64,000 bases of DNA from Eledone cirrhosa. Taxonomy: Eukaryota. The DNA is taken from assembly GCA_964016885.1 (NCBI GenBank), contig OZ024754.1:7378001-7442000 (forward strand), in the 5' to 3' direction. The translations under genes and the position numbers were made by a program. Shown in pieces: positions 18,301 through 21,548 of the stretch (position 1 is the first letter of the stretch; each line of letters opens with the position of its first letter). The notes beneath the pieces were generated by a model. The model had not been told where the DNA came from, made no database searches, and saw only the letters and a list, made by a program, of their open reading frames with translations.

Positions 18301-19034
18301 ATATATATATATATAAATATATATATATATAAATATATATATATATATATATATATATATATAAATATATATAAATATATATATATATATATATATATAT
18401 ATATAAATATATATAAATATAAATATATATATATATATATATATAAATATATATATATATAAATATATAAATATATATATATATATATATATATATATAT
18501 ATATATATATATATAAATATATATATATATATATATATATATATATATATATAAATATATATATATATAAATATATAAATATATATAAATATATATATAT
18601 ATATATATATATATAAATATATATATATATATATATATATAAATATATATATATATAAATATATAAATATATATAAATATATATAAATATATATATATAT
18701 ATATATATATATATATAAATATATATATATATATATATATATATATATATATATATATAAATATATATATATATATATATATATATATATATATATATAT
18801 ATATATATATATATATATATAAATATAATATATATATAAATATATAATATATATATATATATATATATATATATATATATATATATATATATATATAAAT
18901 ATATATATATATAAATATATAAATATATATAAATATATATATATATATATATATATATATATATATATATAAATATATATATATATATATATATATATAT
19001 ATAAATATATATATATATAAATATATATATATAT
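15388..19034. repeat. Very long (TA)n/(TAAA) microsatellite containing an assembly gap
   Basis: Almost pure A/T alternation for ~3.6 kb. Confidence 0.97.
16835..17034. other. Assembly gap (200 N)
   Basis: Run of N. Confidence 0.99.
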
Positions 19035-19327
19035 AAAAACAAATAACGAAACGAAATTAAATTTCGTTTCATTTGTAACTCACTTTCGTATGACTGACGC
19101 TTAAACAATTAAGTTAAAGATGTACATCCACATATGTATACTGAAATACTAGTATGCATATGAATACACACACGTATACATATGTAGATGTACCGAGTTT
19201 TTCACTGGTCACTTTACTGTGAGTGTCCAGCTATTCTGTATGTAAACACACAGACAAACCGGTTTTTAGAGTCATACTGGTTTTTGAGGAAACACCTTTC
19301 CTCTATTCTCCAGAAAGCCAGGCAAGG

Positions 19328-19372
19328 AATATTGAACTAGTTTCGATGTTGTTACATCTCATCAGCAATATT
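19328..19372 (-). ncRNA. Minimal type-I hammerhead ribozyme
   Basis: Reverse complement of the motif at 20635-20679. Confidence 0.85.
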
Positions 19373-19793
19373 TACCTATCTTCCGGCCTCTCTAGAGAAT
19401 CGTAAAAGCACATATCGTTATATGCTTTTTCTATGAAAATTAGTAGTGGGCAGACTAATTTGCATAGAGCGTGAGTACGTACCGGTTCAACGGAGACGAT
19501 AAAAACAAATAACGAAACGAAATTAAATTTCGTTTCATTTGTAACTCACTTTCGTATGACTGACGCTTAAACAATTAAGTTAAAGATGTACATCCACATA
19601 TGTATACTGAAATACTAGTATGCATATGAATACACACACGTATACATATGTAGATGTACCGAGTTTTTCACTGGTCACTTTACTGTGAGTGTCCAGCTAT
19701 TCTGTATGTAAACACACAGACAAACCGGTTTTTAGAGTCATACTGGTTTTTGAGGAAACACCTTTCCTCTATTCTCCAGAAAGCCAGGCAAGG

Positions 19794-19838
19794 AATATTG
19801 AACTAGTTTCGATGTTGTTACATCTCATCAGCAATATT
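19794..19838 (-). ncRNA. Minimal type-I hammerhead ribozyme
   Basis: Reverse complement of the motif at 20635-20679. Confidence 0.85.
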
Positions 19839-20634
19839 TACCTATCTTCCGGCCTCTCTAGAGAATCGTAAAAGCACATATCGTTATATGCTTTTTCTAT
19901 GAAAATTAGTAGTGGGCAGACTAATTTGCATAGAGCGTGAGTACGTACCGGTTCAACGGAGACGATAAAAACAAATAACGAAACGAAATTAAATTTCGTT
20001 TCATTTGTAACTCACTTTCGTATGACTGACGCTTAAACAATTAAGTTAAAGATGTACATCCACATATGTATACTGAAATACTAGTATGCATATGAATACA
20101 CACACGTATACATATGTAGATGTACCGAGTTTTTCACTGGTCACTTTACTGTGAGTGTCCAGCTATTCTGTATGTAAACACACAGACAAACCGGTTTTTA
20201 GAGTCATACTGGTTTTTGCCTGGCTTTCTGGAGAATAGAGGAAAGGTGTTTCCTCAAAAACCAGTATGACTCTAAAAACCGGTTTGTCTGTGTGTTTACA
20301 TACAGAATAGCTGGACACTCACAGTAAAGTGACCAGTGAAAAACTCGGTACATCTACATATGTATACGTGTGTGTATTCATATGCATACTAGTATTTCAG
20401 TATACATATGTGGATGTACATCTTTAACTTAATTGTTTAAGCGTCAGTCATACGAAAGTGAGTTACAAATGAAACGAAATTTAATTTCGTTTCGTTATTT
20501 GTTTTTATCGTCTCCGTTGAACCGGTACGTACTCACGCTCTATGCAAATTAGTCTGCCCACTACTAATTTTCATAGAAAAAGCATATAACGATATGTGCT
20601 TTTACGATTCTCTAGAGAGGCCGGAAGATAGGTA

Positions 20635-20679
20635 AATATTGCTGATGAGATGTAACAACATCGAAACTAGTTCAATATT
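20635..20679 (+). ncRNA. Minimal type-I hammerhead ribozyme
   Basis: AATATTG CTGATGA GATGT-aaca-ACATC GAAA CTAG TT / CAATATT: 7-bp stem I, 5-bp stem II, palindromic ACTAGT stem III, GUU triplet, predicted cut after 20672. Confidence 0.85.
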
Positions 20680-21100
20680 CCTTGCCTGGCTTTCTGGAGA
20701 ATAGAGGAAAGGTGTTTCCTCAAAAACCAGTATGACTCTAAAAACCGGTTTGTCTGTGTGTTTACATACAGAATAGCTGGACACTCACAGTAAAGTGACC
20801 AGTGAAAAACTCGGTACATCTACATATGTATACGTGTGTGTATTCATATGCATACTAGTATTTCAGTATACATATGTGGATGTACATCTTTAACTTAATT
20901 GTTTAAGCGTCAGTCATACGAAAGTGAGTTACAAATGAAACGAAATTTAATTTCGTTTCGTTATTTGTTTTTATCGTCTCCGTTGAACCGGTACGTACTC
21001 ACGCTCTATGCAAATTAGTCTGCCCACTACTAATTTTCATAGAAAAAGCATATAACGATATGTGCTTTTACGATTCTCTAGAGAGGCCGGAAGATAGGTA

Positions 21101-21145
21101 AATATTGCTGATGAGATGTAACAACATCGAAACTAGTTCAATATT
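21101..21145 (+). ncRNA. Minimal type-I hammerhead ribozyme
   Basis: Same motif 466 bp downstream; predicted cut after 21138. Confidence 0.85.
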
Positions 21146-21548
21146 CCTTGCCTGGCTTTCTGGAGAATAGAGGAAAGGTGTTTCCTCAAAAACCAGTATG
21201 ACTCTAAAAACCGGTTTGTCTGTGTGTTTACATACAGAATAGCTGGACACTCACAGTAAAGTGACCAGTGAAAAACTCGGTACATCTACATATGTATACG
21301 TGTGTGTATTCATATGCATACTAGTATTTCAGTATACATATGTGGATGTACATCTTTAACTTAATTATATATATATAAATATATATATATATATATATAT
21401 ATAAATATATATATATATATATAAATATATATATATATATATAAATATATATATATATATATATAAATATATATATATATATATATAAATATATATATAT
21501 ATATATAAATATATATATATATATATAAATATATATATATATATATAT

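Follow-up and report, generated by a model that had tools for sequence, protein, structure and literature searches.

Head-to-head arrays of a 466-bp hammerhead repeat in TA microsatellites of Eledone cirrhosa, probably written by a borrowed PLE enzyme from both ends of a staggered cut

On contig OZ024754.1 of Eledone cirrhosa, a (TA)n microsatellite is interrupted by two arms of the same 466-bp unit facing each other head to head. The locus raises the question of what kind of element this is, and of how two oppositely oriented copies came to be written at one site. We analyzed the surrounding 64,000 nucleotides (the window, to which all coordinates refer) together with further copies from the 3.0 Gb genome. 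Judging from sequence, we consider it probable that the array arose when a non-LTR retrozyme, a non-coding hammerhead repeat of high copy number, inserted recently. A borrowed RT-endonuclease of a Penelope-like element (PLE) would have written it into the TA microsatellite, with a single 466-nt RNA, likely a circle, as the template on which the two DNA ends left by one staggered cut both served as primers.

Anatomy of the array and its hammerheads

TRF resolved two arms (19033-20218 and 20216-21366), each with 2.5 copies of period 466 and 100% matches, and both are an exact match to a concatemer of the unit at 20673-21138. Together with a search for the hammerhead core pattern, this bears out the initial annotation, which had described two head-to-head arms of identical units with four intact hammerheads inside a (TA)n tract. 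Unit position 1 is 20673, the first base after the predicted GUU cut. The array comprises the following features.

15388-19035, no strand: left (TA)n/TATAAA tract, target microsatellite
19033-20218, minus strand: left arm, about 2.5 units (1,186 bp), from unit 49 (inner end) to unit 302 (outer end, site B)
19033-19106, minus strand: 74-nt tail (unit 229-302), confined to the outer end of the left arm, a family-wide feature
20216-20218, no strand: inversion junction, where the arms overlap by a 3-nt microhomology (TTG)
20216-21366, plus strand: right arm, about 2.5 units (1,151 bp), from unit 10 (inner end) to unit 228 (outer end, site A)
20673-21138, plus strand: predicted monomer from cut site to cut site, 466 nt, 36% GC, 67% paired as a circle
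20920, plus strand: rare G at unit 248, shared by all five covering units on both arms (family mostly A; G in 4 of 123 other loci)
20934-20962, plus strand: 13-bp hairpin followed by a U-rich run, just 5' of site B
21366-21549, no strand: right (TA)n/TATAAA tract, target microsatellite

The arms are not mirror images, the outer 74 bases (unit 229-302) being extra on the left. As all units are identical and all covering units carry the rare G at 248, the locus is among the youngest copies of the family, in line with the very recent insertion that had been proposed. The longest ATG-initiated ORF in the repeated unit has 50 codons, which agrees with the earlier statement that no credible ORF is present, and the unit lacks the ORF with RT and GIY-YIG of an autonomous PLE. 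Its circular fold is predicted at -155.1 kcal/mol, compared to -94.5 ± 4.2 for shuffled sequences (n = 40). No tRNA genes were found in the window, and Rfam miRNA matches to the long hairpin were dismissed because their scores are far below gathering.

That the inversion is a long-read foldback or an assembly artefact is extremely improbable. No piece bridging this locus's junction occurs among the contig pieces listed from four sequencing runs, which such an artefact would explain and which is uninformative on polymorphism. Against it, the arms stop at different unit positions between differing flanks, the same layout recurs at dozens of loci with differing centers, and in contigs of run X1 left-arm sequence is joined to right-arm sequence in 14 of the 15 joints listed. 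With head-to-head as the family's usual layout and with asymmetric arms and flanks, the inversion can be taken as real rather than as the foldback chimera that the initial annotation had kept in view.

Each of the four hammerheads is of type I and consists of helix I, CUGAUGA, helix II, GAAA, and a palindromic helix III.

19328-19372, minus strand: hammerhead, core start 19365, predicted new 5' end at 19334
19794-19838, minus strand: hammerhead, core start 19831, predicted new 5' end at 19800
20635-20679, plus strand: hammerhead, core start 20642, predicted cut after 20672 (GUU)
21101-21145, plus strand: hammerhead, core start 21108, predicted cut after 21138

The position of the GUU triplet places the predicted new 5' ends of the right arm at 20673 and 21139. 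At the Rfam gathering score (52) the array has no match, and below it Hammerhead_HH9 is reported four times (33.1 bits, E 7.3e-6). For an RNA of 1.2 units, RNAfold predicts a double hammerhead, with the palindromic helix III of one ribozyme paired to that of the other. The motif had been read as a minimal hammerhead with a palindromic stem III that cleaves as a dimer; of this, the palindrome and a predicted dimeric fold hold, whereas the ribozyme, whose helix III has 1 bp and carries a palindromic loop, is a canonical metazoan type I rather than a "min-HHR" in the terms of PMC4209133 (Cervera and De la Pena). It resembles HHR_Amex1 of the axolotl, which has a 1-bp helix III with a palindromic tetraloop and is active as a dimer. 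By pattern search, no hammerhead core was found on the antisense strand of the unit, which therefore differs from viroid-like RNAs with ribozymes in both polarities.

Several measures bear on constraint within the unit. Each core position has its conserved letter in at least 527 of 529 units. All 112 inherited variants lie outside the core and helix III, a difference from singletons that is not significant (p 0.11). Pairing is preserved by 43 of 76 inherited changes (35.5 ± 1.7 expected from their spectrum), and covariation is modest, with changes on both sides in 3 of 155 pairs and 30 kept versus 27 broken pair types. An octamer-like motif at unit 334-343 was considered as a protected element and rejected, as inherited changes do occur there.

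A family with fixed, paired outer ends

Exact hammerhead cores number 2,607 genome-wide, and a second core pattern yields 5,321 matches; the 100 of these that were listed all represent this hammerhead, altered in helix II by a compensatory change. The array thus has thousands of relatives, the existence of which the initial annotation had made a touchstone of its proposal. When other hammerheads with this helix III were sought by pattern, the 100 matches listed all belonged to the 466-bp family. Sampled full units are 89 to 100% identical to the unit at 20673-21138, and one array has more than 30 units. A second family, RZ2, is about 65-70% identical to the 466-bp unit, has its outer ends at equivalent positions, and shows a similar hairpin before the equivalent end. 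Sequencing runs from three other organisms also contained the family (three contigs in X4 and one, of depth 5, in X7, both about 98% identical; 39 in X5); low-depth contigs with common alleles could be cross-contamination, and we draw no bearing on host range or horizontal transfer from these runs.

The suggested retrozyme-like nature is well founded on tandem non-coding units, a type I hammerhead in each, and thousands of genomic copies. Like the metazoan non-LTR retrozymes (Cervera and de la Pena 2020, PMC7229834; Li, Clavereau and Pollet 2026, bioRxiv 10.64898/2026.07.22.740005), the family further combines a GC content below 50%, a highly self-paired predicted circle, a target duplication longer than 4 bp (13 nt here), and PLEs in the same genome. 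According to the accessible text of these sources, 466 nt lies at the upper edge of the 150-450 bp range given in PMC7229834 and inside the 51-972 bp range given in bioRxiv 10.64898/2026.07.22.740005. Plant LTR retrozymes have type III hammerheads in two LTRs and a 4-bp duplication, and are set apart from the type I hammerheads, tandem units, and 13-bp duplication found here.

The outer ends of the arms are fixed, with site A at unit 228-233 and site B at unit 301-302. Exact junctions of these ends with TA occur 2,002 times for B and 1,368 times for A genome-wide, and a TA run adjoins 147 of 160 A/B ends. Within 0-131 Mb of contig 1, A+B accounts for 37 of 40 head-to-head end pairs (p 1e-8); the B+B exception consists of two insertions, and both A+A pairs have three pieces. 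Two-armed insertions that were not chosen by their ends (n = 42, arms under 39 bp being left out of the pair counts) comprise 33 A+B, no A+A or B+B, and nine with one cut or odd end. A+B pairs also make up 34 of 36 in the set picked by both ends, which is not independent for this purpose. A fresh set of 39 loci picked by one end gave 18 A+B, one A+A, six with one odd end, and 14 single-armed loci. Among single B-ended arms of the earlier sets, a short inverted stub of end A was seen by eye in 7 of 10. L230 was omitted from later counts as a duplicate of L229.

Target duplications of 13 nt, which include 1-6 nt common to the target and the element end, flank all four two-ended loci with unique sequence on both sides among the 17 inspected. 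Inner ends (n = 156), on the other hand, spread over the unit, and two lie within 5 nt of the cut site versus 3.3 expected; 45 of 78 inner junctions overlap by 0-6 nt. With an inverted arm, a one-sided tail, a duplication, and an AT-rich target, the family shows the signature of PLE insertions. The initial annotation had not remarked on the fixed and paired outer ends, on the 13-bp target duplication, or on the A-to-G clusters described below.

The same genome holds an intact element of this kind. PLE1 encodes 830 codons with RT and GIY-YIG, has copies that are about 99% identical, and carries a hammerhead. It was identified by motifs and by Atlas neighbors with HTH_animal/GIY-YIG, searches of Pfam and PDB giving no useful match. 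Its two fixed, TA-joined ends have 1,953 and 4,080 exact junctions genome-wide, all 33 head-to-head end pairs within 15 kb are one-of-each (33 of 34 when the limit is 20 kb), and private variants are common to both arms in seven of nine loci. Because an intact PLE1 shows the same one-of-each pairing, the layout of the retrozyme is that of working PLEs in this genome. PLE2 (821 codons) and PLE3 (1,217 codons) are further intact families, and the genome contains more than these three.

Links between retrozymes and PLEs in the accessible text of PMC7229834 and bioRxiv 10.64898/2026.07.22.740005 consist of co-occurrence and end-repeat similarity, whereas our link is the anatomy of the insertion, without a homologous end repeat having been found. 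The end repeats of PLE1, PLE2, and PLE3 are distinct, each family having its own, and no homology to the 466-bp unit was detected in PLE1 or PLE3 loci (low-complexity blastn matches only) or, by eye, in PLE2. As a separate observation by eye, a 10-nt AT-rich word is common to the first end of PLE1 and site B.

The resemblance extends to endonuclease-bearing PLEs of other animals. As far as the accessible text of PMC3846280, PMC8557442, and PMC11167929 (the anole Poseidon element PAc) describes them, these share with the present family an inverted 5'-truncated copy, a tail that is often one-ended, AT-rich or microsatellite targets, a hammerhead (in the PLE end repeat), and two internal RT start sites. 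They differ in that the retrozyme has no ORF, a tail of about 70 nt instead of 30-40, a duplication of 13 bp instead of 8-10 bp, and two arms that are both multi-unit. The PLE protein studied in PMC11167929 nicks and extends both strands, two internal RNA start sites bound the tail, and the protein is predicted to be a dimer; no difference between strands in the start site was found, and the inversion is not addressed. Retrozyme ends show 1-6 nt of target microhomology, whereas PAc starts at a non-homologous site. The strict one-of-each pairing counted here likewise contrasts with PAc, for which no strand difference is described and ordinary second-strand synthesis is proposed (PMC11167929).

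Head-to-head arrays, fixed paired ends, the tail, and (TA)n targeting are not described in the accessible text of PMC7229834 or in the main text of bioRxiv 10.64898/2026.07.22.740005; the word "inverted" is absent from the former, and "tail" and "head-to-head" from the latter. Two questions meet in this family, namely whether retrozymes are mobilized by PLE enzymes and how the inverted repeats and tails of PLEs form. For the first, movement of animal retrozymes as circular RNAs through PLE enzymes has so far been proposed in the accessible literature; for the second, the accessible text of PMC8557442 calls the origin of these structures undefined. Owing to the thousands of young copies of a short unit, the rules of insertion (start sites that come in pairs, a stagger of 13 bp, and a single template haplotype for each event) become countable.

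The template of the two arms

If both arms were copied from one RNA, they should agree in sequence, and no fixed difference between arms was found over 10,176 positions (27 loci with at least two units per arm), compared to 3.0% of cross-locus comparisons that are identical. A private variant is fixed on both arms in 15 of 50 loci, and unit junctions are letter-perfect in 329 of 336 cases. A cut linear monomer is an unlikely template, given that the arms repeatedly cross the cut site and do so with such junctions. A variant that is fixed throughout both arms implies that copying went through one single unit, a point in favor of a circle, and a circular monomer is a likely template on this evidence. 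The initial annotation had suggested a circular or multimeric RNA, and the crossing of the cut site and the fixation of variants across the units of both arms support that broader suggestion.

The multimeric version of this suggestion would have PLE-type two-ended priming act on an uncut linear transcript of a homogeneous source array, the hammerhead having no role in mobility. We regard it as unlikely, although it is the strongest competitor. Unprocessed RNA is the dominant in vitro substrate in PMC11167929, where hammerhead cleavage was dispensable for in vitro insertion. Arms read from a multimer would cross the cut site without a scar, an autonomous PLE yields the same layout, and variants do occur in particular units of both arms: on both arms of L045 the outermost unit has T43C, and at a few other loci the two arms have non-fixed variants in common, which suits a multimeric template better than a monomer circle. 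However, private variants of a locus and A>G clusters are fixed throughout both arms (19 of 19 units in L081), which would then need repeated passage through a single unit, and the near-invariance of the core in 529 units, over subfamilies of 89-100% identity, argues against a hammerhead without function in mobility.

A single cDNA could also account for identical arms. In the self-priming model (Arkhipova et al. 2013), one end is primed normally, and the inverted arm arises from the first cDNA or an antisense template folding back. This explains the shared haplotype and the microhomologies at junctions, and the junction of the present locus resembles a foldback with a 37-nt loop. Yet foldback limits the lengths of the arms. 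One direction fits by length in 52 of 68 A+B loci, with the caveat that arm lengths may alter after insertion, but these split into 34 and 18 between the two directions, so that both would be needed, and at 16 of the 68, this locus included, neither arm can copy the other. Nor does foldback account for a second arm that ends at the other fixed site, next to a 13-bp duplication. We therefore consider it improbable.

Still less probable, to the point of being very remote, is a spread and homogenization of arrays by DNA-level satellite dynamics, i.e., extrachromosomal circles, unequal crossing-over, and conversion between arms. Later local duplication is evident from periodic variant patterns in the long arrays L043, L051, L053, and L056, and the array with more than 30 units points in the same direction. 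Fixed outer ends, target duplications, a sense-strand A>G bias, and the PLE-like layout are not what such processes predict.

Taking one template haplotype together with arm lengths that foldback cannot give at 16 of the 68 loci, we find it simplest to suppose that a 13-nt staggered cut offers two 3' ends, each of which primes on the RNA, one at A and the other at B, and that the resulting pair of antisense cDNAs is joined by microhomology. The sequence of events for priming on a circle may be as follows. A read-through transcript would fold two adjacent hammerheads into a double hammerhead and release monomers, which a host ligase would close; the structured RNA may at times be A-to-I edited. 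AT-rich DNA would be cut with 3' overhangs of about 13 nt, as suggested by the 13-bp duplications, and the genomic pattern shows one DNA end joined to unit 228-233 and the other to 301-302, with target/element microhomology of 1-6 nt. Both cDNAs would then circle the RNA for a variable number of turns. Finally, as the genomic copies show, the inner ends meet at arbitrary positions, often with overlaps of 0-6 nt, leaving a head-to-head array with a tail on one end only.

A related process is known from L1. In twin priming, the RNA is primed by the two target ends, and the resulting inversion is closed by microhomology and flanked by a duplication. In L1 this happens occasionally, at a variable second site and with hardly any overlap between the two parts. 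In the hammerhead family, in contrast, two-ended insertion is standard, neither site varies, and each arm repeats the same sequence several times. Three intact candidate enzymes, exact RNA start sites, and a target are at hand, which makes a two-ended rolling-circle assay directly testable.

Clusters of A-to-G changes

Changes were mapped on a tree of 79 loci. Inherited changes, counted without six old-subfamily loci, comprise 47 A>G versus 22 T>C among 122 (p 0.001), and single-unit changes 49 A>G versus 41 T>C among 419; the contrast in A>G between inherited and post-insertion (singleton) changes is borderline (p 0.056). Rare fixed A>G changes are clustered by locus, with eight in L235, five in L234, and three in L081, while no locus has three or more rare fixed T>C, G>A, or C>T changes. 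The three A>G changes in L081 occupy all 19 covering units on both arms, and the cluster of eight in L235 is confined to two units of one arm. The clustered sites lie at unit 336-345 and 383. Under the strictest (private) filter, 8 A>G versus 6 T>C were counted, which is not significant, and neither the old nor the fresh set reaches significance by itself.

On balance, we favor ADAR (A-to-I) editing of the template as the source of the clusters, with somewhat less assurance than the circle itself and as a reading of substitution patterns. Neighbor preferences of ADAR were not significant at the A>G sites. Selection for G-U wobble pairs could also inflate A>G, but it should equally raise C>T over G>A, for which the counts are merely 16 and 13. 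As a control, the PLE1 ORF, which is unstructured, has 4 A>G among 23 changes and no bias. If the clusters are edits, they constitute a molecular tag of one edited RNA unit that was copied many times into heritable DNA.

A more far-reaching interpretation, which we put forward tentatively and would not yet call the probable one, takes the arrays as a genomic record of Penelope integration. An enzyme dimer would hold one circular RNA, give each end of the 13-nt staggered cut its own fixed start site, and run two rolling-circle reverse transcriptions at once; ADAR edits on the circle would enter every unit of a new germ-line array, so that editing would drive the sequence evolution of the family. 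If true, a dimer with two start sites would explain why PLEs have an inverted repeat as well as a tail on one side.

Precedents exist for the class, for the tail, and for the inverted copy. In the literature searched, the counted one-of-each pairing, the single-template evidence, and the putative editing clusters were not found described for retrozymes. In a literature search at title and abstract level, with subscription papers mostly outside it, we found neither paired ends or editing in retrozymes nor a cephalopod retrozyme.

Single-unit changes were also screened for a G>A excess as a mark of first-strand cDNA. This candidate was set aside, as the excess is significant in A arms (24 versus 8) and not in B arms (27 versus 20).

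Array layout and cut triplet in the 466-bp family

Arm length can differ greatly within a single retrozyme array of the 466-bp family. The array at G000:C1:5738090-5752752 carries more than 30 units in one arm and fewer than two in the other; this strongly lopsided array nonetheless has A+B ends, i.e., one of each of the two fixed outer ends, sites A and B. Two further loci, L229 and L230, are 18 kb apart and have an identical arm layout, and they likely represent a segmental duplicate. Across the family, the predicted cut triplet, at unit position 466, was GUU at 258 and GUC at 71 of the 336 unit junctions counted.

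A second retrozyme family

Copies of a second family, RZ2, were located in the window and at two other loci:

L078:500-2100, RZ2 copy
L041:8500-9700, RZ2 copy
window 29470-29702, RZ2 copy

RZ2 shares approximately 65-70% identity with the main retrozyme over part of the sequence, contains a hammerhead, and has outer ends that fall at the equivalents of sites A and B. Its centre is a microsatellite-like hairpin of variable length.

Penelope-like elements and other repeats

Three young, intact Penelope-like element (PLE) families were found in the genome, the first of which is represented by:

G000:C2:379073500-379083400 (L152), young intact PLE

Its hammerhead holds an insert of about 116 nt in helix II, and GUU is the cut triplet predicted from its sequence. 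The element has a tail of 145 nt, and its long 3' region is rich in microsatellites. The two additional families (L170 and L203; 821 and 1,217 codons), of which the 1,217-codon PLE includes an asparagine-rich stretch, are frequently arranged head-to-head.

A palindromic stub, two PLE end-pieces, a hammerhead-like motif, and two tandem repeats were also detected in the window:

21549-21923 and 58658-58990, TA-embedded palindromic head-to-head stub, ~370 bp
36944-37221, end-piece of the 1,217-codon PLE family
37683-37759, end-piece of the 830-codon PLE family
~35800-35930, hammerhead-like motif on the minus strand, core at 35899
11047-11967, minisatellite, 22-bp period, 42 copies
45783-46666, 110/226-bp tandem repeat

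The ~370-bp stub, one arm of which is longer by ~31 bases, was also found at six other loci (L224, L035, L064, L238, L042, and L180), and probably constitutes another PLE-type end-piece family. The hammerhead-like motif lies inside an insert of ~200 nt with TA runs on both sides.
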